Positions 6,516-45,576 of a stretch of DNA of 64,000 nucleotides are shown one piece after another. Below the pieces are notes generated by a model, which saw nothing but the letters and a program-made list of their open reading frames with translations, had not been told where the DNA came from and searched no databases. Within the stretch, counting starts at the first letter, position 1. Each line of letters begins with the position of its first letter. The translations under genes were made by a program, and so were the position numbers. This stretch comes from an uncultured Eubacteriales bacterium (lineage in GTDB: Bacteria; Bacillota; Clostridia; Oscillospirales; Acutalibacteraceae): NCBI GenBank assembly GCA_900540085.1, contig UQEU01000002.1, positions 20,833 through 84,832 of the forward strand. Direction: 5' to 3'.

Positions 6516-7390
6516 AAAACGAAGTTGCCGTTATCGACAGAATTACAATAGACTGTATCTACTCCGATTTTGAAAATTTTTCAAGTGCCGGCGAAGAAAT
6601 ATGCACTAAAAATTTTTCTCTTTCTCTGGGTGGTGGCGCCTGCGTAAGCATTTCAAGACTTTCCTCAATGGGTATTCCTACCCGTTTCGGAACCTTTTTG
6701 GGAAAAGACAGACTGAGCGAATTTGCATCAATGTTGCTTGAAGATTTTCAACTTCAAAATGCGAAAAACTTTTACAACGGCGAAAAGTGTCCGATAGTTT
6801 ACAGTACTGTTTTTTCAGGCAAAAACGACCGACAGATTTTAAGTTTTGATGAAGAAATAGATGAAAATATTTTAACCGATGAAGAAATGTACAATTTTTT
6901 CAAAGGCAGTAAAATTTGCTTTGCACCCAAAAGAGAAAGTGTGTTGGAAAAATTAAAAAAAGACGGCACAATAATCGTTTATGACTCTCATTGGGTAGAA
7001 AATCAAACTGTAAATGATATTAAAGACATTATAAAATACGCCGATTTTTTCACTCCCAATGACAAAGAAGCAATGGCTTTGACAGACACTGAAAACGCAA
7101 AAGACGCTTTAAAATCATTGACCGAGTACACAAAAAATCCAATTGTAAAAACGGGCAAAAACGGTTGTATCGCTTTTATCGACAACAAAATTGTCAACTT
7201 CCCCGCCCCGAAAGTCAAGTGCGTTGACACAACGGGTGCAGGCGACAATTTTCTTGCAGGTTTGATTTTCGGTATTTATCGCAATCTTCCGATTGAAAAG
7301 TGCGTTGAACTTGCAAATATTGCAGGAACATTGTCTGTAACTGAGAAGGGCTGCTATTCGGCGAAATATGATTTAAACAATTATTTATAA
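6506..7390 (+). CDS. PfkB-family carbohydrate kinase (ribokinase-like)
   Basis: 294 aa. C-terminal DTTGAGDNFLAGLIFG PfkB signature. Start overlaps the GH4 stop (ATGA). Confidence 0.8.
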   Translation: MEMKNEVAVIDRITIDCIYSDFENFSSAGEEICTKNFSLSLGGGACVSISRLSSMGIPTRFGTFLGKDRLSEFASMLLEDFQLQNAKNFYNGEKCPIVYSTVFSGKNDRQILSFDEEIDENILTDEEMYNFFKGSKICFAPKRESVLEKLKKDGTIIVYDSHWVENQTVNDIKDIIKYADFFTPNDKEAMALTDTENAKDALKSLTEYTKNPIVKTGKNGCIAFIDNKIVNFPAPKVKCVDTTGAGDNFLAGLIFGIYRNLPIEKCVELANIAGTLSVTEKGCYSAKYDLNNYL

Positions 7391-15735: not shown

Positions 15736-17526
15736 ATGAAAGTTAGAAATTTATTGTCAAAAACGGTTGAAACCGTTGCTCAAAGCGACTGCGAAAGCCA
15801 AAAAATAATGATTAAAGGCTCATATATGAAACAGATGAGCAGTGGTATATATTCTCTTTTTGCACCGACAAAAAGAATAACAAAAAAAGTTGAAAACATC
15901 ATCCGTGATGAAATGGACAGAATTGACGGTCAGGAAGTTATGTTTCCTGTTGTAATGCCCGCTTCACTTTGGAAAAGTTCGGGAAGATTTTATTCAATCG
16001 GAAACGAGATGGTGCGTTTTTCCGACAGGTCAAACAAAGAAAACGAGTCAAATATGGTACTCGGTATGACTCACGAAGAAGCGGCCGTACACCTTGCAAG
16101 CAATGTTGCCCAATCGCACAGCGATTTTCCTTTTATGATTTACCAAATTCAGACTAAGTTCCGTGACGAGCCTCGTTCAAGAGCAGGACTTATCCGTGTG
16201 CGTGAGTTCACTATGAAAGACGCATACTCTTTCCACACCTCGCAAGAAGACCTTGAAAAATACTATGACCGTTGCTACAAAGCATACGAAAGAATTTTTG
16301 CAAGAGCAGGCGTGCCTGAAGTTATCGCAGTTAAAAGCGACTCGGGTATGATGGGCGGTTCTGTTTCTCACGAATTTATGCTTTTGACAGATATTGGCGA
16401 AGACTCGATTGCAATATGCCCCGAGTGTAACTACAAAGCAAATATGGAAGCGGCAGACTGCGTATTTGACAACAGCGACAACACCGTTGTTGAAGAACTT
16501 GAACTCAAAGAAACGCCAAACGCAAAAACAGTTGCCGATGTTGCAGAGTTTCTCGGAAAAACGGCAAAAGATGTTTGCAAAGCCGTTGTTTACAGAAGAA
16601 AGGACAACGATGAGTTCATTCTCGCATTTATACGAGGCGACCTTGAAATCAACGAAACAAAACTCAAAAACCTTATCGGTGCAGATATTTATCCTGCTGA
16701 AGATATTTCTGACGCTGACTTTGTTGCAGGCTTTATAGGTCCTATCAATCTCAAAGCAAAATGTCAAATCATTTACGACAAGAGTGTTGACGGTTGTGCT
16801 TCAATGATATGCGGTGCAAATAAAGAGGGTTATCACTATACAGGCGTAAATGTCAAAAGAGATGTCGGTGATGTCGAATATTTTGATATTTCTAAAATCA
16901 CAAACGGCTCTGTCTGTCCCGTTTGCCATAAAAAATCAATAACAATTAAAAGAGGCATTGAAGTCGGAAATATTTTCCAACTCGGCACAAAATACACCGA
17001 AGCTATGAATATGCTTTATACAGACAAGGACAACACGCAAAAGCATCCTATTATGGGCTGCTACGGTATCGGTGTAGGCAGACTTGTTGCGTCTGTTTGT
17101 GAAGCAAAAAGATATTCACGCACAAGATTTGACAAAAAAGCAGGCAAAGAAATCACTGCTTGGTATCCGCTTTGGCCAATGTCTATTTCTCCTTGGCAGG
17201 TACAAATCTGTGCTTTAAATGCATCTAAAAACGAAGATGTACAAAAAACTGCCGACAAATTGTATGAAGAACTGACTGCTCTCGGTGCAGAAGTTCTCTA
17301 TGACGACAGAAGTGTAAGTATCGGTTCTATGCTTACCGACGCTGACCTTTTCGGTATTCCGCTTCGCATTATCGTAAGTCCGAAAACACTTTCAAGAAAC
17401 GCTGTTGAGTTCACAAAACTCAATCTCGAACCTGAAAAGACAGAAACTGTTGACCTTGATTTTGACAATGCCGCAAAAACTGTATATCAGGAAATTAAAG
17501 CAGAACTTGAAAAGTACAATATATAA
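15736..17526 (+). CDS. proS: Proline--tRNA ligase (bacterial type with INS editing domain)
   Basis: 596 aa. Class II aaRS motifs, the N-terminal pattern conserved in bacterial ProRS, and a C-terminal anticodon-binding domain. Confidence 0.95.
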   Translation: MKVRNLLSKTVETVAQSDCESQKIMIKGSYMKQMSSGIYSLFAPTKRITKKVENIIRDEMDRIDGQEVMFPVVMPASLWKSSGRFYSIGNEMVRFSDRSNKENESNMVLGMTHEEAAVHLASNVAQSHSDFPFMIYQIQTKFRDEPRSRAGLIRVREFTMKDAYSFHTSQEDLEKYYDRCYKAYERIFARAGVPEVIAVKSDSGMMGGSVSHEFMLLTDIGEDSIAICPECNYKANMEAADCVFDNSDNTVVEELELKETPNAKTVADVAEFLGKTAKDVCKAVVYRRKDNDEFILAFIRGDLEINETKLKNLIGADIYPAEDISDADFVAGFIGPINLKAKCQIIYDKSVDGCASMICGANKEGYHYTGVNVKRDVGDVEYFDISKITNGSVCPVCHKKSITIKRGIEVGNIFQLGTKYTEAMNMLYTDKDNTQKHPIMGCYGIGVGRLVASVCEAKRYSRTRFDKKAGKEITAWYPLWPMSISPWQVQICALNASKNEDVQKTADKLYEELTALGAEVLYDDRSVSIGSMLTDADLFGIPLRIIVSPKTLSRNAVEFTKLNLEPEKTETVDLDFDNAAKTVYQEIKAELEKYNI

Positions 17527-33975: not shown

Positions 33976-34170
33976 TTATATCATTGATAAAAGTCTTGCT
34001 AAAAGCTCTTTATCTGCGGAGCAAAAATTGTAGTCTTGTATCTCTGCGGGTGTAATCCATTTAATGTCGTTGTGATCCAGCTTTTGAGAAATACCTTCCG
34101 CTATAGTAACATTAAATAGTGTGAGATGCACCGTTAAGTCTGGGTATTCGTGGATAACATCCATAAACAC
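33976..34170 (-). pseudogene. C-terminal fragment of a NUDIX (MutT-like) hydrolase
   Basis: 64 aa, GTG-initiated. Resembles the last strands and helix of MutT-type enzymes (IKWITPAEIQDYNFCSADKELLARL). No Nudix box. Confidence 0.4.
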
Positions 34171-34646
34171 ATTTCCGACCGAGAGTGTAATAGCAAATAA
34201 ACAATTATGCCAAAATAAACGCCTATTGGATCATCATTATTTATAGCATCATTATCGCAATAAATAAAAAAATTAAAACCTGTTATAATTTCTTTTGTTG
34301 TATTTGCAATTTCAGGTATATCAGAATTAATAAACCTACAAATATTCGGATCGTAGTAGCGTGACTGAAGATAGTAGTACCCTGTTTCGTTGTCGTAGTA
34401 GCCACGATAATGCAGTGGATTGGCTTCTGCTATCTCCAAATCACCTGTAATGTCTAATATTTCGCCCCAATCATCGTAAACATATTCGCAGACGATATAT
34501 CCGTCTTCATCTATTATTGCAGTTACATCTCCGAATTGGTTCGTAACATAGTAGTACTGTCGCTCATTATACAACATTCCGACAGGCGTACCGCCTGTGT
34601 CACATTGGAAATATATGAAATTCCCGTCCGTGTCTTGTTGCGACAC
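34134..34646 (-). pseudogene. Orphan RHS C-terminal module: RHS-core end plus truncated alternative CT
   Basis: First 110 aa are about 85% identical to residues near the end of the RHS core of the 1957-aa protein (YYYVTNQFGDV...YLQSRYYDPNICRFINSDI). A DPIG motif is followed by only about 30 residues before a stop. DNA 34330-34520 is about 90% identical to 36400-36620. Confidence 0.7.
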
Positions 34647-35187: not shown

Positions 35188-35733
35188 TTACCGTACATTA
35201 TTGATTTTAGAGTCTATAAAGTTTTTAAAACTTTCGTTATCTTTAAGACAAAAAGCATAACTTGTTTGATAATCATTCCTGTTTTTACATTTCAAAATCA
35301 CAAACTCTTCACCTGTACATATTGAATTTAATATATGGTCACCTATACGGTCCTTCTTCGTTTTATCTTCTCCGTAAATATAAATTTCTACACTTTGTAT
35401 TTCATCGTAATATATCTTTTTTGCAGGTTTAATGATGATATGTCTTATAAAAGAAACTGCCCAATTATATATTATAATACAATCATCTTTTATCTTTATA
35501 TATTTTCCCTTTACAATGTAGCAAACTAACATAATTATTGATATTACAAAGTATAATACCCCAAAAAATATCATAGCAGGATAAACTTGCGGTTCAATAA
35601 AAAAATTTATAAATACCAAAAAGCAGAATATATACAAATAATTTGTAAAACATGATGAAGCAATTATCCTTAGACTAACAAAAAAATCAACAACATTGTT
35701 TTTCTTGTTAGAGTACCCAAAACGATATTTCAT
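35188..35733 (-). CDS. Two-TM membrane protein, candidate cognate immunity protein for the RHS C-terminal toxin
   Basis: 181 aa. Starts 20 nt after the rhs stop. Two hydrophobic helices in the first 70 aa, then a soluble domain with no known motif. Confidence 0.5.
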   Translation of the reverse strand: MKYRFGYSNKKNNVVDFFVSLRIIASSCFTNYLYIFCFLVFINFFIEPQVYPAMIFFGVLYFVISIIMLVCYIVKGKYIKIKDDCIIIYNWAVSFIRHIIIKPAKKIYYDEIQSVEIYIYGEDKTKKDRIGDHILNSICTGEEFVILKCKNRNDYQTSYAFCLKDNESFKNFIDSKINNVR

Positions 35734-35752: not shown

Positions 35753-38700
35753 CTATATATAATCGTGATTAACAAAACGAATTGAAACCTCCATTATAAA
35801 AATGGCTACATCAGCAATAAAATTATATACACCTGGTATATCCGGAATAAATATATTCACCAATGAAACTATAGCATTTGTAAAAGATAAGGTAAATGAT
35901 TGCCAATCATTATAAATTCCTTCTACATAATCATCATTTATAGAGACCATATCAATGATTAAACCAATAAAAGGAGCAATATTTGTTTTTTCAAAATTTG
36001 GTTTAAATTTTTTTATAATATCCATAAATTCATCTTTAGGGTTATCTATAAAGTTATGAACAATATCAGTAAATGAGTTATTAAGTATTAAATCAAATCC
36101 AGATGAAAATAAATGATTAAACGCAGTTGTAAAAAATAAAGTTGCGTTCTCCATAAATTTTTTCGAAGCACTTTCCAAACCATCAAACCATTCATTAAAA
36201 TTAAATGTTTTGTCAACTAATTTAATAATATGTTCAAATATGTTTGTAAAAGTATCAATTTCAATTGCTACGCATAACCCTCTTAATGCTGCCTCAAACC
36301 AATTTGTTGTTTTATAAAATCCTGTCGGGTCAATAAAATTGATAGGGTCATTTTGACAGTATATAAAAATATTTATTCCGAGCAAAGTGTCAATACTTAC
36401 AAGAGATAATATATCGGCATTGATAAACCTGCAAATATTCGGGTCGTAGTAGCGTGACTGAAGATAGTAGTACCCTGTTTCGTTGTCGTAGTAGTAGCCA
36501 CGATAACGCAGTGGGTTGGCTTCTGCTATCTCCAAATCGCCCGTAATATCTAATATTTCGCCCCAATCACCGTAAACATATTCGCAGACGATTTTACCGT
36601 CTTCATCAGCCAAAGCAACTATATCGCCTAGTTGGTTTGTAATATAATAATATTGAATATGATTATAAACCAAGCCGAGAGGTGTGCCGTTTTCAGCGTA
36701 TTGAAAATAAATAGAATTGCCGTTTGAGTCTTTTTGTGAAATAAGTTTTCCTTGTTCGTAGTTATAAAATGTTTTGACACCGTTTATATCTTTTAAAATT
36801 CGCATACCGTTGTCATCATAATTATAACTGTACTTATTCTCGCCATCTGTTAACTCAGATAAATATCTTCCTACTTTCCACTTGAACTGTCTGTTCGCAT
36901 AAGAAACAGGATTGCCCATATCGTCGTATGTAATCGGCACTCCGTTTACCGACAACAATCTGTCTTTCCATCCATCCTGTGAATAGGCAAAATCTGACTT
37001 TTCTCCGTTAACACTTTTAGAAACAATATTGCCTCGCTCATCGTACTCATATTCACAATTGATCGTACCGTTGCTTTTAATCAACTGACCTTTTTCATCA
37101 TAAGTATAGTTTTCAATATAATCTAAATCGCCATACTTACTGTTTATTGATACAAGTTTATTATCTTTGTCATAAACAGTCTCAAAACTATATTTTTTCG
37201 ACAGATTTTCATAATAACGATTTACAATATTTCCTTCTTCGTCTATTTTATTATGAGAAGTAAAGGTAACATTGCTTTTTATTCTGCCTAAAACATTGTT
37301 TTCGTTTTCGTCATGCTCAAAATTGTATTCAAAAGATTTCGAAGAATTAGAAGAATTATTTGTTTCGGTTGAATCATTATTTATAATATCTCTTGAAAAA
37401 ACTATGCTGTTTTCACCATGTACAATATGATAAACTTGGCCAAAATGTAAAGATGTGATATCGTCCGGTATATTTTTATCTTTATTAGATTTAGTTACAA
37501 ATACTAAATGAGCTATTTCTTGACTGCCGTTTATTCCTTCACCATATAGTTTTTCTGTACAAGAATAAAAATAGTTCAATAAACTAATTGTTTTTGCGGC
37601 AAGACTTCCGTCACTATTATATTCATATGTAACATCATCTTTTTCATTGCCGTCAAAATATTGTCTGCTTACTTTTCCTTCTAAATATTCATAAGTTCTG
37701 CTTCCGCCGTTTGAGTATTTTTCAGCAATCAAATTAAACTTTTCATCATACTGATATGTTACTGCGGTTTTTCCGCCTATATCAATTTTAGAAACTTCAC
37801 CATGATTTATATAATGGAATTTATAAATGTCAAACTCGGCAAGTTCAAGAGAACCTCTGTCATTGTATGTATATTCGGTAACTTTGCCTAATCTGTTTTT
37901 TACTTTTGCAACCGTTCCGTTTGAATTGTAGGAATAAGTAACGCCTGCATTCTTGTCCGAATATGTATTTGACTCGGGAAGACCGTCTTTTGTTTTGTCA
38001 TAATCTTCAGTTGTTATATACTGTACAACTCTTCCGTATTCATCATATACGGTACGAGATATTTCTCCGTTTTCATTGCTGAAAACTATATTGTTCGCTT
38101 TATCATAAATATATTCAGATTTGTTGTCGCCATTCATTGAAGTAAGAACATTTCCTAGTATATTGTATGTATAATCTACCTTACTTACCGAAGAGCTGTC
38201 AGAATTTTTTGCAGTTAAAGTTGCAATATTGACTACATTACCGTATTCATCATAACTATATGATACAGTTTTATCTGTTTTACTGTCAACAGTTTTTGTG
38301 AGCAGACCGTTATCATAAGTATAACTTATTGTATCAAAGCAAGTCAATGATGAATCATAAACAGCAGGAATTCTGCCTGAATAATTTTCTTTTAATGTTG
38401 CTGAAATAATTAGTTCATTATTATCGTTATATACTGAATAGGTATAATTGTTTCCTGTCTGCTGACGAATCAATTTATCATTCTCATCATACGAATAATA
38501 CAAATCTTCTTCGTTATCATTACTGTGAACTTCCGAAATCAAATTATTGTTTGAATCATATTTATACGATACTTCGTCATCAGTTGTTTTATATAAAACA
38601 AGCCTATTAAATTCATCGTACTGATATTCTGTTTTATTTCCTTTTTCGTCAACTGACGAAACTATGTTAAGAGCATCATTGTAACTGTACAAAACAGTTT

Positions 38701-41626
38701 TTTCTGTTGAATCTTCAATAAAAACAGTTTTATTTTTATTGTCATAAACATAGTCGGTATATGCACCGTTGTCATACTCATATGATGTTACTCTGCCGTC
38801 AGAATTATACTCTATCGACTTATCTGAACTTTTTTTCAAAAGTCCGTTTGAATATGAGTATTTACCGACGGTAACACCTTCTTGGTTTATAACCTCTGAA
38901 AGATTGTTGTTATTGTCATATTCATATTTAATCGTATTGCCTGCGGGGTCTGTAACAGATACTATATTTTTATTTAAATCAAGCGCTAAAACATATTTTC
39001 GTTCAGAACCGTCAGAAATTGTTATTGAAGACTCTTCTCGTGCTATTAATATAGAATCTCCGTACTTACTTTCGACGGACTCAAGTACACCTTCAGAATT
39101 ATAGATATAATTAGTATTTCCAATTTGAATAATATACCCATTTTCACTGACATTGAGTATATAACCGTTTTTATTATCTGTATATACTCCTACGGAAGAT
39201 TTTAAAAACCGGACTCTCATTCCGTTAGTCAAAACAGCAGTATAAATATAATCGCTTTCCTTTGAAACAGTGCTGTCCGTTGAAAAGAACCATTTTTTGT
39301 TTACACTGCTATACTCTCTGACAAAATCAAATGAAACCGTTTTATATTTCATTGAAAAATCAATTGAATTTTCTTTATACTCTCCCAATCGTGAACTGTC
39401 AGGAGTGATTTTTTTACTTACAATTTCATCACTGTCTTCAAATTTAGCATATACAATGCTTTCCTGATAAAGCGGCAATGCAAACGGAACAGTATATTTC
39501 TGCCATTCACCGTTTTCACCTATTTTATACAGTAAATTGTCATCATTATTTCTCGGATTAATTATACCTGTAAGACAACCGTCTGTATATAATTCGGGCT
39601 TTAAGAAATATGATTCATCAGGAGCTATTTTATTAATATCAATTTGAACAGGTTTGGAAATATTACCCGCATTATCTCTTGCATAGATATATACAGTTTG
39701 ATTTTCCGAAAATGTTTTTGTATTTTCAGACTGCCAAGAATAAGCACCCTCAGTACTTGAAAAACTGTAATCTTTAATTCCCGATTCAGAATCGCTTGAG
39801 CTTGCCGTCAGAGTTACTTTATCCATAGTCCATTTTGTCGGATTGCCTGTAACGGACGAAACTGACGGTGCGGTTTTATCTATTTTATTTATTGTTTGTG
39901 TTGAAACAAGACGGATATTTCCCATAGCGTCGCGCACATAAACATAAACAGTACAGTTTGATGAAAATGTTTTGCTGTTGGCTGATTGCCAACTATATGA
40001 ACCTTTTGTTGTTGAAAAAGAATACGGAGAAGAATGAAGTCCTGAACCGCCGTTGTTATCTTTCGCTCCGTTAACTGTCAGAGTAACATTATTTTGTGTC
40101 CAATTTGAAATATTGCCTGTTACACTTGTTACTGTAGGCGCAGTTGTATCATTTGTATAATTAATTACGGTATATGGACGCATTGCAGATGAAGAATATT
40201 GACGGGAAGTAAAAGCACGCCAATTATAGTTTCCGTCAGTTTCTTCTGAACTTTCAAAACAAAAGCCATAGTTTTTATTTGTTCCGTCAGCCCATTTTTG
40301 CACCATATTTGTAATATTAAATTTATACCAATACTTATTATCAGGGTCATCCGTAGATTTACTGTTTATTGTTCTTGTAGTTCCTTTTACAGAGTTATAT
40401 GTAGGTCTTGTTTTCCAAGTAACTTCACCCTCGTACCAAGCGCTTGTTACCATATGAGGCGTAACTTTTGTTGTTGTAGTTCTGCCTGTCGTTTCTCTCT
40501 GCCATGAATAAGCACTGTTTATTACAGCACCTTTTTTAATTTCACTCGGCATAGTAAACTGATTTAATACTCTGCCGTAGCCGTACTCGGAAGCTCGTCC
40601 GAAACAACAAGTTTCTTCTTTGCCGTAACATATAGACGCACTTGTACTTTTATTGTATATACCTGCGTCTCTGTAATTGCCTAATTGACTTGTAGTAGGG
40701 TCAATGACTACGGGGTATTTTGTGCTGTCGCTCGTAAACCATTCATTAGGAACGGTTATTGTCATTATATAAGATGTTTCATCTTTATCTATGAGAGAGT
40801 ATTCACAATCAACATAATGTGAATTTAAATCTCCCTCTACATATTCGCTGTCGTAAGCGAACGGAGCGGTAAAGGTCTGAATAACGGTATCATCATTATT
40901 AATGATAGAAATAGTGCCGTCTTCATTGAGTTTAGCCGTACAATTGTTTGTTTTTAATTCAAATGAAAATGAGTTTTTATTAATATTTCGATTAAGCACA
41001 ATTTCATCTTTAAGACCGTTTAATTGAGGATAAAATCGCAAATTTGTTCCTTCACCGTAAATATTTTCATATTGAAAAACTTCAAATTTTTCGTTTGAAA
41101 ATTCTGCTACAGATTCAGTACCCTCTGCTTTTGTATCGGAATAAGGGACAATAGAATAAGAATAATTACCGATTACTGCTTCTATCCCCTTTGAAGAATC
41201 TTTTGAAAAATTTATCCTGTAATCGTTTTGTCCGTTTGTGTAATCATAGCCATTATCTTTTAGTTTTTTATCGGTCTGTTTTTCAACAGATATATCCTTT
41301 GTCTTGAGATTTCCGTTATCGTCAACAAAGGAAATCGGCTCTGAAAACAGATATACGGTATTTGAACCGTCTCGGTTTTCAAGATTTATTGTATGGTCAT
41401 CTGCAAGCATAGCATTTTTGTCAACTGCTGCTGCACCTTCGGTATCAACAATTTCCGAAGCATATGCAGAAAGCATAGACTGAATACCAAGCCATTCTTG
41501 AAGTCTTGAGCTTCCGACTGTCAGTGTTACTATCGTTCCGAAGCCGATAATTACAGCAAGAATGACCGATAGAATCTTTTTCCACGGTTTGTGATTTGTT
41601 GAATTTAATTCATAAAAATCTTCCAT
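35753..41626 (-). CDS. RHS/YD-repeat polymorphic toxin (WapA-like), 1957 aa. N-terminal TM anchor, two tandem Ig-like domains, YD repeats, RHS core ending ...NDPINFIDPTGF, then an uncharacterised C-terminal domain of about 215 aa.
   Basis: Many YD repeats (for example YxYDxxGRL-like: YTYNDRGSL, YQYDEKFNL, YEYDERGNI). RHS-repeat-associated core (YYLQSRYYDPNICRFINADI) and a DPxG cleavage-type motif. RBS AGGAGA 8 nt upstream of the ATG at 41626. Confidence 0.9.
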   Translation of the reverse strand: MEDFYELNSTNHKPWKKILSVILAVIIGFGTIVTLTVGSSRLQEWLGIQSMLSAYASEIVDTEGAAAVDKNAMLADDHTINLENRDGSNTVYLFSEPISFVDDNGNLKTKDISVEKQTDKKLKDNGYDYTNGQNDYRINFSKDSSKGIEAVIGNYSYSIVPYSDTKAEGTESVAEFSNEKFEVFQYENIYGEGTNLRFYPQLNGLKDEIVLNRNINKNSFSFELKTNNCTAKLNEDGTISIINNDDTVIQTFTAPFAYDSEYVEGDLNSHYVDCEYSLIDKDETSYIMTITVPNEWFTSDSTKYPVVIDPTTSQLGNYRDAGIYNKSTSASICYGKEETCCFGRASEYGYGRVLNQFTMPSEIKKGAVINSAYSWQRETTGRTTTTKVTPHMVTSAWYEGEVTWKTRPTYNSVKGTTRTINSKSTDDPDNKYWYKFNITNMVQKWADGTNKNYGFCFESSEETDGNYNWRAFTSRQYSSSAMRPYTVINYTNDTTAPTVTSVTGNISNWTQNNVTLTVNGAKDNNGGSGLHSSPYSFSTTKGSYSWQSANSKTFSSNCTVYVYVRDAMGNIRLVSTQTINKIDKTAPSVSSVTGNPTKWTMDKVTLTASSSDSESGIKDYSFSSTEGAYSWQSENTKTFSENQTVYIYARDNAGNISKPVQIDINKIAPDESYFLKPELYTDGCLTGIINPRNNDDNLLYKIGENGEWQKYTVPFALPLYQESIVYAKFEDSDEIVSKKITPDSSRLGEYKENSIDFSMKYKTVSFDFVREYSSVNKKWFFSTDSTVSKESDYIYTAVLTNGMRVRFLKSSVGVYTDNKNGYILNVSENGYIIQIGNTNYIYNSEGVLESVESKYGDSILIAREESSITISDGSERKYVLALDLNKNIVSVTDPAGNTIKYEYDNNNNLSEVINQEGVTVGKYSYSNGLLKKSSDKSIEYNSDGRVTSYEYDNGAYTDYVYDNKNKTVFIEDSTEKTVLYSYNDALNIVSSVDEKGNKTEYQYDEFNRLVLYKTTDDEVSYKYDSNNNLISEVHSNDNEEDLYYSYDENDKLIRQQTGNNYTYSVYNDNNELIISATLKENYSGRIPAVYDSSLTCFDTISYTYDNGLLTKTVDSKTDKTVSYSYDEYGNVVNIATLTAKNSDSSSVSKVDYTYNILGNVLTSMNGDNKSEYIYDKANNIVFSNENGEISRTVYDEYGRVVQYITTEDYDKTKDGLPESNTYSDKNAGVTYSYNSNGTVAKVKNRLGKVTEYTYNDRGSLELAEFDIYKFHYINHGEVSKIDIGGKTAVTYQYDEKFNLIAEKYSNGGSRTYEYLEGKVSRQYFDGNEKDDVTYEYNSDGSLAAKTISLLNYFYSCTEKLYGEGINGSQEIAHLVFVTKSNKDKNIPDDITSLHFGQVYHIVHGENSIVFSRDIINNDSTETNNSSNSSKSFEYNFEHDENENNVLGRIKSNVTFTSHNKIDEEGNIVNRYYENLSKKYSFETVYDKDNKLVSINSKYGDLDYIENYTYDEKGQLIKSNGTINCEYEYDERGNIVSKSVNGEKSDFAYSQDGWKDRLLSVNGVPITYDDMGNPVSYANRQFKWKVGRYLSELTDGENKYSYNYDDNGMRILKDINGVKTFYNYEQGKLISQKDSNGNSIYFQYAENGTPLGLVYNHIQYYYITNQLGDIVALADEDGKIVCEYVYGDWGEILDITGDLEIAEANPLRYRGYYYDNETGYYYLQSRYYDPNICRFINADILSLVSIDTLLGINIFIYCQNDPINFIDPTGFYKTTNWFEAALRGLCVAIEIDTFTNIFEHIIKLVDKTFNFNEWFDGLESASKKFMENATLFFTTAFNHLFSSGFDLILNNSFTDIVHNFIDNPKDEFMDIIKKFKPNFEKTNIAPFIGLIIDMVSINDDYVEGIYNDWQSFTLSFTNAIVSLVNIFIPDIPGVYNFIADVAIFIMEVSIRFVNHDYI
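39640..40150 (-). repeat. Tandem duplication encoding two Ig-like (Big/He_PIG-type) domains inside the RHS protein
   Basis: Protein segments TAPTVTSVTGNISNWTQNNVTLTVNGAKDNNGGSGLHSSPYSFSTTKGSYSWQSANSKTFSSNCTVYVYVRDAMGNI and TAPSVSSVTGNPTKWTMDKVTLTASSSDSESGIKDYSFSSTEGAYSWQSENTKTFSENQTVYIYARDNAGNI align residue by residue. Confidence 0.6.
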
Positions 41627-41746
41627 TTGTTCCGTCTCCTATAATAAAGTAATTATTATTGTTATTCTATGTAAACATATATTACACAGAACAGCATATT
41701 TTAGATTGATATACTCTTTACTATAAGTCTTGAGTCTTTATTAAAA

Positions 41747-41798
41747 ATTTTAATAAATAAGAAGACGGTAATTCAACAAAAAAACAAAACTATGCTAT
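41747..41798 (-). promoter_or_regulatory. Putative rhs promoter (-35 TTGAAT, 18 nt, -10 TAAAAT on the minus strand) with an abutting 17-bp motif ATAGCATAGTTTTGTTT that is also found at the agrB-peptide promoter
   Basis: Minus-strand reading: ...tcgtttttATAGCATAGTTTTGTTTttttgTTGAATtaccgtcttcttatttatTAAAATtttt... The motif is at 41782-41798, the -35 at 41771-41776, and the -10 at 41747-41752. Confidence 0.4.
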
Positions 41799-41835
41799 AA
41801 AAACGACAAAAAAAGCAGGGTACCTGAGGTAAAAA

Positions 41836-43131
41836 TTAAATTTTAAGAAACAGAATTGTTAAATGAAATTTATGTTCTGTATCATTATAAGACCATTCAT
41901 ATTTGCCATTGTTCTTTTTTGCATATTTTTTTATTATTTTTGTACCAAATCCATGGTTACTTTTATCAAATTTTGTTGTAAGTAATTGTTTGCCGGTATG
42001 TTTTGGCGGAAAATCACAGGAATTTACAACATTCAGCAAATCCATATTATTAATATGCCTTAATGAAAATTCAATACTTTTTTCTTTGCTTGATTTTGCA
42101 GCGTCAACAGCATTATCAAGAATGTTGTTAAGAAGTATAGATAATTCAGAATTATCTATATAATCTAAATTTGCAGTTTTTACTTCATAGTCAAATTTAA
42201 TATTATTATTTTTGCAAACAACTATATATTTGCTGATAATTAAATCAAGCATTTTGTTGTTGGATATATTTATAATATTCCTGTTTTGAAATTCAGGATA
42301 AATCTTTTTTATATACGCTTTTACTTCATCTATATTATCAAAACTGCCGATGGTAAGATAGTGATTTTTCGTATCGTGAAACATCATCTGCAATTCGTTG
42401 TTTTGATGTTGTAAAACATCGAGATATGTTTGATTTAAATTATACAGTCTTTTTTCGGACTCCAGCTCATTTATTTTTTCTTCGCGATTGGCAAGTATTT
42501 GGTAATATATAAAAATAAATATACTTGCAATAATATATAGAATACAAACAGCTGTCGTTGCAATTTTGTATGATGTTGATACTTCAAATTCTAATGCAAT
42601 AAATAAAAATATTGTACAGGATAAAATAGTTAATACAGGAAATATAAACAGTGGCAGAAATTGCTTTATTTTATTATTTTTATGTCCTATTTTTATTATT
42701 ATCAATGATAATAATTGAGATAAAATAAAATATACTAATTTACATATTAATACAACGATTATAAGAATATGGACATCATCTTTATATTTATTTGTCGGAA
42801 GTTCAAAAATTGCAGAAAGTTGAAAAATAGTAATTATTTCAGTAGAAAACATAAGAGTATCAAGAATAATGCTTTGAATTGCGGCATTTTTAACTGAAAT
42901 ATCAAAACATAACAGGGCAAATATAAAATTTATTGCAAAAAATACAATTAAATTAATTATTTCATTTTCAAAAAGACTGAATATACATGAACTTGGCAAA
43001 AACAATAATAATCCTATTAAAATAATAAGGAAATTTGGCTTTTGCTTTTTTTCATATATTCTTGTAAAAAAGCAAAACGATATTATCATTTCAAAAAAAT
43101 AAACAAACATCATTACTATAAGTCTTGACAT
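41836..43131 (-). CDS. Sensor histidine kinase, HPK10 (AgrC/ComD-like) subfamily, polytopic N-terminal sensor domain
   Basis: 431 aa. Six or seven N-terminal TM helices. H-box MMFHDTKNHYL. N-box LLNNILDNAVDAA. G-box region HGFGTKIIKKYAKKNNG. ATG overlaps the response-regulator stop (TAATG). Confidence 0.85.
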   Translation of the reverse strand: MSRLIVMMFVYFFEMIISFCFFTRIYEKKQKPNFLIILIGLLLFLPSSCIFSLFENEIINLIVFFAINFIFALLCFDISVKNAAIQSIILDTLMFSTEIITIFQLSAIFELPTNKYKDDVHILIIVVLICKLVYFILSQLLSLIIIKIGHKNNKIKQFLPLFIFPVLTILSCTIFLFIALEFEVSTSYKIATTAVCILYIIASIFIFIYYQILANREEKINELESEKRLYNLNQTYLDVLQHQNNELQMMFHDTKNHYLTIGSFDNIDEVKAYIKKIYPEFQNRNIINISNNKMLDLIISKYIVVCKNNNIKFDYEVKTANLDYIDNSELSILLNNILDNAVDAAKSSKEKSIEFSLRHINNMDLLNVVNSCDFPPKHTGKQLLTTKFDKSNHGFGTKIIKKYAKKNNGKYEWSYNDTEHKFHLTILFLKI

Positions 43132-43844
43132 TATTTACCCTCCATAAAATGCATAAACTTTTGATAAAAATCTGTTTGTCTGTTTCTTGCAATATTTATT
43201 TCATATTTATTGTCAAGAATAATACGCTTTCTTTCATACGATGTGACATAGTTAAAATTTATAATATAACTTTTATGCGGAGATATAAATATCGTGCTCG
43301 CAAGATTATCTTTCCAAAAGTTCATATTATGGTCGGAATGGTATTCTTTATTACAAGTAACAATTTTTGTTTTGCGCTTTTCAATTTCTACAAATATTAT
43401 GTCTTGTGCAGAAATCCGTTCCACCATTCTATTATCCTTTACATAAAAACTGATTGTTGAATTATCAATCCTTTTTATTGCGTCACTCAATCCTCTGTAA
43501 AATCTTTGTGAATCAAGCGGCTTTTCAAAAAAACGAACGGCATTAAGATTTAAAGCATCATCAAGATATTTTTTGTGAGCAGTAACATAAATCAGAATAA
43601 TGTGCGGATTTCTTTTCCTTAATTCTTCGCCGAGTTTTATACCGTTCATATTATCCATTTCGACATCGAGTATCGCAATATCATAATTCATATTACTCGA
43701 GAGCATATCTGACGAATCGCTAAATACACTTTTTTCAAAATCTATATTATTATCTATTGAAAAGAAATCCAAATGCTCAATTATGTTGTTAATATATATT
43801 TGTTCGTCATCACATATTGCGACTTTCAGAATAATCACCACCAA
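43131..43844 (-). CDS. Response regulator, receiver plus LytTR DNA-binding domain (AgrA/ComE-like)
   Basis: Receiver motifs (VAICDDE ... ILDVEM ... KLGEELR) and C-terminal LytTR pattern (...FFEKPLDSQRFYRG ... ISPHKSYIINFNYV). Confidence 0.85.
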   Translation of the reverse strand: MVVIILKVAICDDEQIYINNIIEHLDFFSIDNNIDFEKSVFSDSSDMLSSNMNYDIAILDVEMDNMNGIKLGEELRKRNPHIILIYVTAHKKYLDDALNLNAVRFFEKPLDSQRFYRGLSDAIKRIDNSTISFYVKDNRMVERISAQDIIFVEIEKRKTKIVTCNKEYHSDHNMNFWKDNLASTIFISPHKSYIINFNYVTSYERKRIILDNKYEINIARNRQTDFYQKFMHFMEGK

Positions 43845-43876
43845 AAAATAAAGTCAATAGGCAACGCCTATTGACA
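43841..43876 (-). terminator. Rho-independent terminator downstream of the XRE gene, upstream of the RR-HK operon
   Basis: Perfect 10-bp stem GTCAATAGGC-aac-GCCTATTGAC, with a T-run on the minus strand. Confidence 0.65.
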
Positions 43877-43910
43877 AAATAATAACATATAGTCTTAATA
43901 AATACAAATT

Positions 43911-44240
43911 CTATTTTTCCTTGAAATCTATCAATGTGTGTGCAACAGATTCTAAAATAGCTATATCTTTATCAGTACATAAATTCAACAAATCTATTAA
44001 ATTATCTTTAGAATTATCTCTGATATTTCCATAAAGAATATAATCTAATCTTGTGTCCAATCCATCACAAATTGTAATAAGAGTGTTTAAACTATATGAG
44101 CCACCATTTTCAACAGTAGAAATATGAGTTGGTGATATATGTATTTTTTTACCTAAACTTTCCTGTGTCAAATGTTGTTCTTTTCTTAATTTAACAATAT
44201 GGCTGCCAATTTTTGTTGTATTGATTTTTATATTACCCAT
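43911..44240 (-). CDS. XRE-family HTH transcriptional regulator
   Basis: HTH_3 (IVKLRKEQHLTQESLGKKIHISPTHISTVENG). The start at MGNIK, downstream of the track ATG, is preferred. Confidence 0.7.
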   Translation of the reverse strand: MGNIKINTTKIGSHIVKLRKEQHLTQESLGKKIHISPTHISTVENGGSYSLNTLITICDGLDTRLDYILYGNIRDNSKDNLIDLLNLCTDKDIAILESVAHTLIDFKEK

Positions 44241-44383
44241 GACATCACCCACAAAAATTATACCATCATACAATAAAAATGTTCTCCTACAATATAGTAT
44301 AACCACTAAAACAGATTGTAATTACAAACTAATTTCAAAGTTTTACTAATTATCAAAATAAATATATTATAAATGCCTTAAAA

Positions 44384-44435
44384 ATAGCATAGTTTTGTTT
44401 CAGATATTGATTCCCGAAAAACTATGCAATATAAT
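44384..44435 (+). promoter_or_regulatory. Promoter of the peptide-agrB operon (-35 TTGATT 44407-44412, 17 nt, -10 TATAAT 44430-44435), preceded by the 17-bp motif ATAGCATAGTTTTGTTT (44384-44400). An inverted partial copy (CTATGCAAT) lies in the spacer.
   Basis: Sequence: aaaaATAGCATAGTTTTGTTTcagataTTGATTcccgaaaaaCTATGCAATATAATtg. The motif is identical to the one next to the rhs -35. Confidence 0.45.
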
Positions 44436-44489
44436 TGTTACAGTTATGGTTAATATTAGTTTTCTGATTAAAAGAAAGGAGTAATTTCT

Positions 44490-44637
44490 ATGAAAAATAT
44501 TAGTTTGAAAAACATATTAAAAAGTGTTGTTATGCTTTCGGTCAAGAACAGTGCAAACAGTACGACAAGCGGAACTGTATATCAACCAAAGGCACCTGTT
44601 GCTTTGAAGAAATTCAGCAAGATTGAGAATGGTAAAT
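44490..44637 (+). CDS. 49-aa peptide, candidate secreted signalling-peptide precursor (AgrD-like position, but lacks Cys)
   Basis: Strong RBS AAAGGAGT 7 nt upstream. MKNISLKNILKSVVMLSVKNSANSTTSGTVYQPKAPVALKKFSKIENGK. The stop overlaps the agrB start by 15 nt. Confidence 0.4.
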
Positions 44638-45213
44638 AAATTATCAACTTATTTTACTGAAAAAATGATTTCAAACGGAACAATAAGTGACAAAGATAAA
44701 GAATTATATATATATGGTTTGTTTATGTTTTTGTCACAACTTATGTTTTTTATTATAGCCTGTATATTCGGTTTTTTATTAAACTGTATTATTGAAAGTA
44801 TTATTTTCTATATTGCATTTCAGTTCATAAGAAAATATGCCGGCGGCTATCACGCAGCAACCGAAACAAGATGCGAAATACTATCAACTCTGTCAATATT
44901 AGCTTGTATTGTTGTAATCAGGTTGTCAAAAACTTATGATTTTCAGACTGTTCTGCTTATTATCAGTGCAGTATCGTCAGTCTGTATATTTGTCTTTTGT
45001 CCGCTTGATACACCTGAAAAGCCCTTATCGAAAAAAGAGTTCAAATATTTCCGTAAAGTTTCTTGGGTTATATTACTTGTGATAAGCATAAATATTATCG
45101 TTTCGTATTTTTTCAAATTTCAAATGGTGCTTGTTCCTTGCTGTTTAAGTTTAATTCTTGAAAGCGTACTGATTGTTGCCGGAAAAATAAAAAAAATTAA
45201 AATATCTTATTAA
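44623..45213 (+). CDS. agrB: AgrB-family membrane peptidase (accessory gene regulator B homolog)
   Basis: 196 aa, 5-6 TM helices. The conserved AgrB catalytic region FQFIRKYAGGYHAATETRCEILS has His and Cys spaced as in S. aureus AgrB H77/C84. Confidence 0.75.
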   Translation: MRMVNKLSTYFTEKMISNGTISDKDKELYIYGLFMFLSQLMFFIIACIFGFLLNCIIESIIFYIAFQFIRKYAGGYHAATETRCEILSTLSILACIVVIRLSKTYDFQTVLLIISAVSSVCIFVFCPLDTPEKPLSKKEFKYFRKVSWVILLVISINIIVSYFFKFQMVLVPCCLSLILESVLIVAGKIKKIKISY

Positions 45214-45243
45214 AAGCAAATTTCATCTAAAGGAATAAAGACT

Positions 45244-45438
45244 ATGAATAACAGCGATTCTTATAGAATTGCAATGCAGGTTACGGAAACCGTTATTTTT
45301 AAAAAAGTGAAGTTGGTTTTTTCGATTTGCCCAAGGTGTAATAAATATCTCGACAGAGAATATATGGTCTTTTGCAGTAACTGCGGTCAAAAATTATCTT
45401 GGAAAGACTTTAACAAAACAAAAATTATATATAAATAA
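45244..45438 (+). CDS. Zinc-ribbon miniprotein (CPRC...CSNC)
   Basis: 64 aa with two CxxC pairs, immediately downstream of agrB. Confidence 0.35.
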   Translation: MNNSDSYRIAMQVTETVIFKKVKLVFSICPRCNKYLDREYMVFCSNCGQKLSWKDFNKTKIIYK

Positions 45439-45576
45439 TTTGACCTGATGATTTTTTTCGTCAGGCTCTTTTTTGTTCTGACTGATGTTGAAACAGATAA
45501 CAACTATAAGAAATCCGACAAAAATCCTCAGCAAAATAACAGAGGATTTGCAATATATTAAATTTTTGTTTTCTAT

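Follow-up and report, generated by a model that had tools for sequence, protein, structure and literature searches.

A conserved promoter element ahead of the peptide/agrB and rhs genes of an agr-like locus in uncultured Clostridia

The agr-like locus and its repeated promoter element

We examined a 64-kb stretch of DNA from an uncultured Eubacteriales bacterium (hereafter the window, to which all coordinates and strands refer), in which an agr-like signaling locus stands beside the gene of a large RHS/YD-repeat protein (rhs), and we focused on a short element that precedes the promoters of both the peptide/agrB operon and rhs. The components of an agr locus are present, namely, AgrB, an AgrD-like peptide, an HPK10-type kinase, and a REC plus LytTR regulator; the locus does not have the single-operon agrBDCA organization, the peptide gene and agrB being divergent from an XRE-regulator-kinase gene group. 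The plus strand encodes an AgrD-like pro-peptide of 49 amino acids (44490..44639; …NSANSTTSGTVYQPKAPVALKKFSK…), whose gene overlaps the start of agrB, and an AgrB-type peptide-processing membrane protease with multiple transmembrane segments (44623..45213; PF04647, E 8.6e-38, 130 bits against a cut-off of 23), whose translation probably begins at the ATG at 44629. On the minus strand lie the genes of a 109-residue XRE-family protein with an HTH_3 domain match (43911..44240), a response regulator of AgrA-like REC plus LytTR architecture (43131..43844; PF00072, 2.7e-14; PF04397, 6.9e-17) with an invariant acceptor aspartate, D60, and an AgrC-like HPK10-type histidine kinase (41836..43131; GHKL HATPase_c_5, 6.5e-16), which has six to seven hydrophobic, transmembrane-like segments in residues 1-208 and the H-box MFHDTKNH. 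In searches of solved structures, the regulator gave remote matches only, the best full-length solved relative being ComE (E 1e-4), and no relative of the kinase was found. The domain matches and the H-box bear out the identities that a first-pass annotation of the sequence had assigned to the RHS protein, AgrB, the LytTR regulator, and the kinase. That annotation also set the peptide/agrB operon and rhs, as divergent genes, on either side of the regulator and kinase genes; rhs does flank them, but on the strand of the kinase gene and immediately after it.

The rhs gene (35753..41626, minus strand) encodes 1957 amino acids with matches to RHS_repeat (4e-34) and, at residues 1685-1769, to the Rhs-associated core (Rhs_assc_core, TIGR03696; 1.5e-20). 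The protein is built from an N-terminal signal anchor, a DNRLRE domain, YD repeats, the Rhs core, which ends in a DPxG-type motif (…NDPINFIDPTGF), and a hydrophobic C-terminal domain of 188 residues, for which no family match was found. Its single N-terminal hydrophobic segment (residues 18-36) is a predicted export signal. Twenty nucleotides (nt) downstream of rhs, a gene on the same strand (35188..35733) encodes a 181-residue candidate immunity protein with two to three transmembrane segments and, like the RHS C-terminal domain, no family match. A contact-dependent toxin with its immunity protein is a plausible description of this candidate RHS pair.

The element was recognized as a 17-mer, ATAGCATAGTTTTGTTT, of which the window contains exactly two copies, one on the plus strand (44384-44400) and one on the minus strand (41782-41798); the next-best match within the 64 kb has three mismatches. 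A promoter scan finds TTGATT-17 nt-TATAAT (44407..44435, plus strand), the sigma-70-type promoter of the peptide/agrB operon, 6 nt from the first copy and TTGAAT-18 nt-TAAAAT (41776 to 41747, minus strand), the corresponding promoter of rhs with a leader of ~120 nt, 5 nt from the second. Exact search and promoter scan therefore return the coordinates, strands, and gaps to the -35 hexamer reported in the first pass, which had proposed the frequency of the 17-mer as a check; two copies are all that the window contains. Seventeen nucleotides is also the length of the longest word common to the two intergenic regions in either orientation, and in 1000 first-order Markov shuffles the longest common word averaged 9.7 nt, peaked at 15 nt, and reached 17 nt in none (0/1000), so chance similarity between A/T-rich sequences does not explain the duplication. 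An Rfam search (E<=1) of the rhs leader and the intergenic regions returned no riboswitch or known RNA. Within the rhs leader we also observed an 18/19 direct repeat between positions 41715-41733 (TCTTTACTATAAGTCTTGA) and the first codons of the kinase gene at 43110-43128 (TCATTACTATAAGTCTTGA), which is less similar in the related locus L010 and absent in L015 (both introduced below) and may be a recombination relic or chance.

The peptide family bears on the nature of the signal. Although the 49-residue peptide has no Pfam match, its family alignment reveals the conserved stretch …KNSANSTTSG-x-x-[FY]-QPKAP-x-x-LKKFSK…, and most members are without cysteine and have a conserved serine five residues before QP. 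In locus L047 (near 7105-7227), the serine of TTSG is replaced by cysteine (TTCGVFYQP), and in L032 (near 1236-1376), a cysteine stands three residues earlier. The replacement of serine by cysteine in L047 suggests that the conserved serine closes a ring of five residues, so that most members would form a lactone and L047 a thiolactone. Staphylococci provide known cases of Ser-lactone pheromones, and the pheromone here is probably a Ser-lactone pentacycle.

Conservation and anatomy of the box

To place the element in its family, ~60 regions around regulator homologs were collected from genomes and metagenomes, and ~30 related loci (designated by L-numbers), with regulators 54-99% identical to that of the window, were compared. 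A protein search returned 299 regulator homologs at E<=1e-20, and hundreds are 62-94% identical; the exact regulator sequence of the window has no entry in public assemblies. The source labels are mostly those of uncultured gut Clostridia (Eubacterium sp., Clostridia, Ruminococcaceae, Lachnospiraceae, and Oscillospiraceae), and the sampled hosts are human, mouse, rabbit, and sheep. The nearest locus, L009, has a regulator 99% identical to ours and lies on a 2.6-kb contig labelled Peptoniphilus, which is probably a case of mis-binning; L010, from a metagenome-assembled genome of Eubacterium sp., has a regulator 95% identical and is collinear with window positions 41679-45504 at 95% DNA identity, so that promoter and leader of rhs match it as far as position 41679.

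Across this range of regulator divergence, a box core GCAYASTTTTG, 8-9 nt before TTGAWW, is kept at both positions. The layout behind the kinase gene, kept in 14 non-redundant loci, consists of a terminator hairpin, TTTTTTTGTCGTTTTY, ATAGCAYASTTTTG, 8 nt, TTGAWW, 17-18 nt, and a -10 hexamer, while the layout ahead of the peptide gene, kept in 10 non-redundant loci, reads [CT]A[TC]A[GC]TTTTG, 9 nt, TTGAWW, 17 nt, and TATAAT; TTGAWW-N17-TATAAT is thus the conserved form of the peptide/agrB promoter in the related loci. Upstream of the core lies a degenerate, putative distal repeat, WWTTG, whose G, usually in TTG, falls exactly 22 nt upstream of the last G of the core and is among the most informative alignment columns in both promoter classes. 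In the window, the bipartite box of the peptide/agrB promoter spans 44374..44397 (plus strand), with a distal repeat ending in TG at 44374-44375 and the proximal repeat GCATAGTTTTG at 44387-44397, and that of the rhs promoter (TGTCGTTTTTATAGCATAGTTTTG) spans 41785..41808 (minus strand) within the 209-nt kinase-rhs spacer. The peptide gene is always preceded by one box (conserved in L009, L010, L012, L015, L016/33, L018, L025, L027/31, L029, L032, L047, L050, and L076-L080), and the other box follows the kinase terminator, ahead of variable cargo (L001, L006, L010-L015, L017-L021, L025, L031, L076, L078, L081, and L083). These loci agree with the original proposal of an activator-type site at a like distance from the -35 hexamer of both promoters, and they show that the element tracks with LytTR loci, as it follows the regulator-kinase pair even where agrBD is not nearby. 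The extent of the site has to be redrawn: only ~11 nt are common to both boxes of a locus elsewhere, so the 17-nt identity overstates the functional unit, and the 17-mer that the first pass took for the site is part of a conserved element of which it covers merely the proximal half-site plus flanks.

At two of these loci, L016 (3990-4030) and L033 (after 9991), the homology behind the kinase gene ends inside the box (…TTTTTATAGCA|aaaaataagcggg…) and the terminator of a convergent gene follows instead, with no cargo; the output promoter has been lost in both. In L014 (17199-17230) and L001 (17650-17700), both on the minus strand, a GH2 beta-mannosidase gene close to the regulator-kinase pair is preceded by a palindrome, TATAGCATA-N11-TATGCTATA; it has TATAGCATA in common with the box but a different architecture and is probably the operator of another regulator.

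The box is specific to these positions. The pattern TG-N17-TTTTG-N8/9-TTGAWW matches the window at the two expected sites and at one intragenic site, compared with 0.28 matches expected and a maximum of 2 in 200 shuffles, and in ~610 kb of family loci it is found almost solely at the two expected positions. The intragenic match (TGTCGTAAATGATTTGACATTTTGCTTTGAGATTGATA; 16743-16780, minus strand) falls within a 596-residue open reading frame on the opposite strand (15736-17526) and is most likely due to chance. The two boxes of a locus also co-vary: both read CATAG in the window, L012, and L031, both read CACAG in L015, and both are of a T-extended form in L017; when boxes were paired in 720 permutations, the true pairing was top-scoring, with 6 ties among equivalent loci.

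Conservation of this kind bears on whether the 17-nt identity has any regulatory meaning, since DNA exchange could have produced it as a by-product, either through gene conversion or because the two copies are the terminal inverted repeats of an XRE-regulator-kinase cassette of 2.6 kb that is mobile or invertible. The two copies are indeed perfect inverted repeats around such a cassette, they are identical over 17 nt here as against ~11 nt in other loci, the downstream cargo has been swapped between close relatives, and the start of the kinase gene has its 18/19 match in the rhs leader. On the other hand, the position of the box relative to the -35 hexamer is constant to the base pair across deep divergence, and the breakpoint between the cargoes of the window and L010 lies ~100 nt downstream of the box rather than at it. 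We therefore regard exchange as a very improbable explanation. Its more specific form, in which the 17-mers would delimit an invertible or mobile cassette, was rejected: no recombinase flanks the cassette in the window, no locus has the cassette in inverted orientation, and the breakpoints lie away from the box.

The putative reader of the box and the proposed control of rhs

The box resembles the sites of LytTR regulators, for which the consensus is [TA][AC][CA]GTTN[AG][TG] (PMC5600425) and which consist of imperfect repeats 12-13 bp apart, just upstream of the -35 hexamer (PMC5600425; PMC4227749). The proximal 9-mer ATAGTTTTG, which ends 8-9 nt from the -35 hexamer, agrees with this consensus at 6/8 specified positions and its counterpart in L015, ACAGTTTTG, at 7/8, where ~3.5/8 would be expected by chance as roughly estimated from base composition. 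The 22-nt period of the putative box repeats fits the 21-22 bp period that follows from a LytTR spacing of 12-13 bp. Furthermore, the post-kinase box is kept in loci that have no XRE gene or agrBD within 8-10 kb (L001-L008, L013, L014, and L019-L021), leaving the LytTR protein as the sole regulator that always adjoins it. Because the box persists without XRE and agrBD and both boxes change together, these observations point to the LytTR response regulator as the putative binder. Consistent with a distal-repeat role, the T-run and GTCG upstream of the core are intact in the window and L010 despite reduction of the neighboring terminator hairpin.

The protein encoded next to the peptide/agrB operon offers another candidate. 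HTH_3 proteins usually bind inverted repeats, and the peptide promoter of the window contains a third, degenerate and inverted copy of the box (ATTGCATAGTTTTT; 44417..44430, minus strand) between its -35 and -10 hexamers, such that GCATAGTTTT and AAAACTATGC, 22 bp apart on either side of the -35 hexamer, are perfect inverted repeats of 10 bp (44387-44396 and 44419-44428). The box might then be an operator of the adjacent XRE protein and, together with the third copy, a palindrome over the -35/-10 region of the peptide promoter through which that protein represses; the XRE gene is kept in nearly all loci with agrBD. This alternative we judge quite improbable, as the rhs-side box has no inverted partner and the post-kinase box persists in loci with no XRE gene nearby. 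The inverted arm itself, present in L009, is missing from L010, L012, and all more distant loci, and a palindromic XRE operator across the peptide promoter was rejected as a general mechanism on the ground that the arm is not conserved even in L010, where the regulator is 95% identical. The third copy appears to be lineage-specific and could be a negative-feedback site or chance. A more natural operator is the better conserved palindrome ACAGATTGTAA|TTACAAACTAA (44311..44332) between the XRE gene and the box, which has the family consensus ATAGTTTGTAA-w-TTACAAACTAT, occupies a like place in L010, L012, L025, L027, L029, L050, and L016, and is probably the XRE operator. Its half-site resembles the box core ATAGTTT(T)G.

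A further possibility is that the box, though a real conserved element, is read by an unlinked regulator, or by the C-terminal domain of the RNA polymerase alpha subunit as an UP-like element, in which case rhs would not be under pheromone control. In favor are the A/T-rich character of the region, its location at about -45 to -75, the range of action of UP elements, the near-consensus form of both promoters, and the weakness of the distal repeat. However, G and C are among the conserved positions (GCA…G), unlike in UP elements, and in ~610 kb the element was found only next to the regulator-kinase pair; the co-variation within loci and the likeness to the LytTR consensus (PMC5600425) likewise speak for the regulator encoded at the locus. 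Reading by another factor thus appears improbable.

With the LytTR regulator as the putative reader, we consider it likely that a bipartite LytTR-type activator site, comprising the proximal half-site covered by the 17-mer and its distal partner, drives both the peptide/agrB operon and rhs in a pheromone-dependent manner. The circuit would consist of three units. In the first, a box would control the AgrD-like peptide and AgrB and so close an autoinduction loop; the second, XRE-regulator-kinase, would be without a box; and in the third, a box would control the cargo directly after the kinase gene, here RHS and the candidate immunity membrane protein. As the pheromone accumulates, the kinase would phosphorylate the regulator, and the phosphorylated regulator would occupy the bipartite box at both promoters and recruit RNA polymerase. 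Transcription of peptide/agrB and of rhs with the downstream membrane protein gene would then increase together, following the P2/P3 logic of agr. The sequences demonstrate the anatomy of the boxes, their conservation and specificity, and the recurrence of RHS cargo; the identity of the binder, the activating sign of the control, and its dependence on cell density we infer.

Several observations weigh against this proposal. With good -35 and -10 hexamers and 17-18 nt spacers, both promoters could be active in the absence of an activator; the spacers of AgrA-dependent promoters, by contrast, are suboptimal (PMC4227749). Of the two repeats, the distal one is weak, being essentially TTG in an A/T-rich context with the remainder poorly matched, and behind the kinase gene it coincides with the terminator T-run, which would be conserved in any case. 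The frequency of the box refers to the 64-kb window and ~610 kb of family loci. The regulator and kinase genes have no box ahead of them, so that the feedback loop would be restricted to pheromone production. In L010, the box, the promoter, and ~70 nt of the leader are kept but unrelated small open reading frames take the place of rhs, and the coupling of box and rhs is therefore not fixed. Finally, the terminator between the kinase gene and the rhs box is degenerate in the window, which makes read-through from the kinase gene into rhs possible.

This last point deserves closer attention. The terminator remnant of the kinase operon (41808..41826, minus strand) consists of a 4-bp hairpin (CAGGTACCCTG; 41826-41816) and a T-run (41814-41808) that also provides the rhs box with its distal repeat; an internal deletion left just this hairpin after the kinase gene in both the window and L010. 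The hairpin folds at -2.6 kcal/mol (z 0.04), as against -18 to -24 kcal/mol for the corresponding regions of L012 (11985-12040), L001 (11985-12040), and L015 (3930-3985). Accordingly, rhs in this genome might be transcribed mainly by read-through from the XRE/regulator/kinase unit, with the box contributing little. The -35 and -10 hexamers and the box are nevertheless intact and identical to those of L010, and the T-run alone may give partial termination; we think it rather unlikely that read-through predominates, and in any event it is compatible with control by the bipartite LytTR-type site and does not exclude it. How the regulator and kinase genes are themselves transcribed is a related matter. 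Between the XRE and regulator genes lies a strong terminator-like hairpin with a 10-bp stem, five GC pairs, and a T-run (43853..43875, minus strand), which abuts the ribosome-binding region of the regulator gene; transcription of regulator and kinase could come from read-through or attenuation from the XRE promoter or from an internal promoter.

Cargo behind the kinase gene and relation to known circuits

The genes found behind the post-kinase box differ between loci. An RHS protein with the Rhs-associated core occupies this place in at least 8 distinct loci (the window, L015, L012, L031/L078, L076, L079/L080, L083/L084, and L017), and RHS is the predominant cargo among loci with agrBD. The RHS protein of L015 is 64% identical to that of the window over 292 N-terminal residues, to the end of its contig. 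Other loci carry VanY with an LRR_5 protein (L001, L006, and L014), DUF2500 with VanY (L081), a 146-residue protein with a subtilase-LRR_5 protein (L011), or small proteins without assignment (L010, L013, and L019-L021); the cargo of L010 has no protein-level similarity to the rhs region of the window beyond two short non-coding or edge segments. The view of RHS as the effector, put forward in the first pass, holds in that RHS is the commonest cargo, but other cargo types occur too. Because RHS cargo recurs across agrBD loci, the coupling is a recurrent, though not universal, family trait. Many relatives have the regulator-kinase pair with no agrBD nearby.

The RHS proteins themselves are not all alike. 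In a class of ~1700 residues (L012, L031, L078, L079, L083, and L017), from which the RHS protein of the window is distinct, the C-terminal domain measures ~108 residues and is no more variable than the body, and a subtilase gene (Peptidase_S8/LRR_5, with dockerin in L083) follows directly, with no small immunity-like gene between. These may not be classical toxin/immunity pairs but a different kind of RHS system. Downstream of the rhs/candidate immunity pair of the window, an orphan Rhs-associated-core fragment of 170 residues was found (34134-34646, minus strand), and beyond it a protein with ABC-3C system C-terminal domain 11 (PF20277; 33145-33669, minus strand). At L076 (8700-10600), an IS1595-family transposase and a GyrI-like gene interrupt the kinase gene of an otherwise complete agrBD-XRE-regulator-kinase-RHS locus, which looks like a natural sensor knock-out.

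The locus shares with Staphylococcus aureus agr its AgrB, pro-peptide, multi-transmembrane HPK10-type kinase, and REC-LytTR regulator, as well as, here in putative form, an imperfect direct-repeat site just upstream of the -35 hexamer at pheromone and effector promoters (PMC4227749, PMC5600425). It differs in that the regulator and kinase genes lie outside the autoinduced operon with an XRE gene ahead of them, in that the target promoters flank the regulator genes, where P2 and P3 of S. aureus stand back to back, and in that the effector is protein-coding cargo (RHS) in place of a regulatory RNA. The promoter spacers are near-optimal here, the predicted ring position is serine in place of cysteine, and the regulator is merely a distant relative in sequence.

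Two groups of LytTR circuits come closer in their output. The streptococcal BlpRH and ComDE and lactobacillal PlnABCD systems are LytTR peptide-pheromone circuits that turn on bacteriocin and immunity genes via direct-repeat boxes upstream of the -35 hexamer. They share with our locus, as it is proposed to work, a dedicated peptide/kinase/LytTR circuit and, as output, an antagonism factor with a protective gene (both candidates here), but their peptide leaves by a double-glycine ABC exporter rather than through AgrB, and the product is a small bacteriocin rather than a 1957-residue RHS protein. In Clostridium perfringens, an AgrBD signal is read by VirSR, and VirR boxes, two imperfect direct repeats, lie upstream of toxin promoters. 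The likeness there is in a clostridial AgrBD peptide and a LytTR regulator with direct-repeat boxes, putative ones in our locus; in contrast to the compact module described here, which includes its target promoter, the C. perfringens two-component system is unlinked from agrBD and the toxins are secreted and host-active.

For the cargo, the closest parallel is Bacillus subtilis WapA/WapI, which has an N-terminal secretion signal, RHS repeats, a C-terminal toxin, and an immunity gene directly downstream (PMC8321402), a layout that the window resembles. The wapAI genes are repressed by the two-component system DegS-DegU (PMC8321402), which is global, unlinked, and repressing, and no dedicated pheromone circuit or common box is known there. 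The first-pass annotation had held the coupling of an agr-like circuit to an RHS system to be undescribed, and a literature search for an agr/LytTR circuit wired to an RHS gene, the coverage of which is incomplete, returned no paper on such a link.

Taken together, the comparisons support a putative peptide/LytTR quorum-sensing system in which a dedicated output promoter usually has RHS as its cargo. With middling confidence, we extend this to a general suggestion: that these agr-like modules may carry a hard-wired output socket, consisting of a LytTR box and promoter after the kinase terminator, into which secreted or surface cargo, mostly with an RHS shell, has been slotted repeatedly, that RHS would thereby be pheromone-gated, and that the pheromone variant would define which cells arm together, an arrangement undescribed for Gram-positives. 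The window and L010, which have a like promoter and leader but different cargo, illustrate how an agr-type circuit may serve as a portable switch, its output gene being exchanged between close relatives. The principle of a LytTR pheromone circuit that turns on an antagonism factor is already familiar from bacteriocin loci, and what we describe is an extension of it rather than a new principle. The compact module (peptide, AgrB, kinase, regulator, and two boxes) could be reconstructed in a heterologous host. Polymorphic toxins, RHS among them, are widespread in gut Firmicutes; if the box is the regulator's site, pheromone-gated expression of RHS could be predicted from a simple cis-element in many uncultured gut Clostridia.

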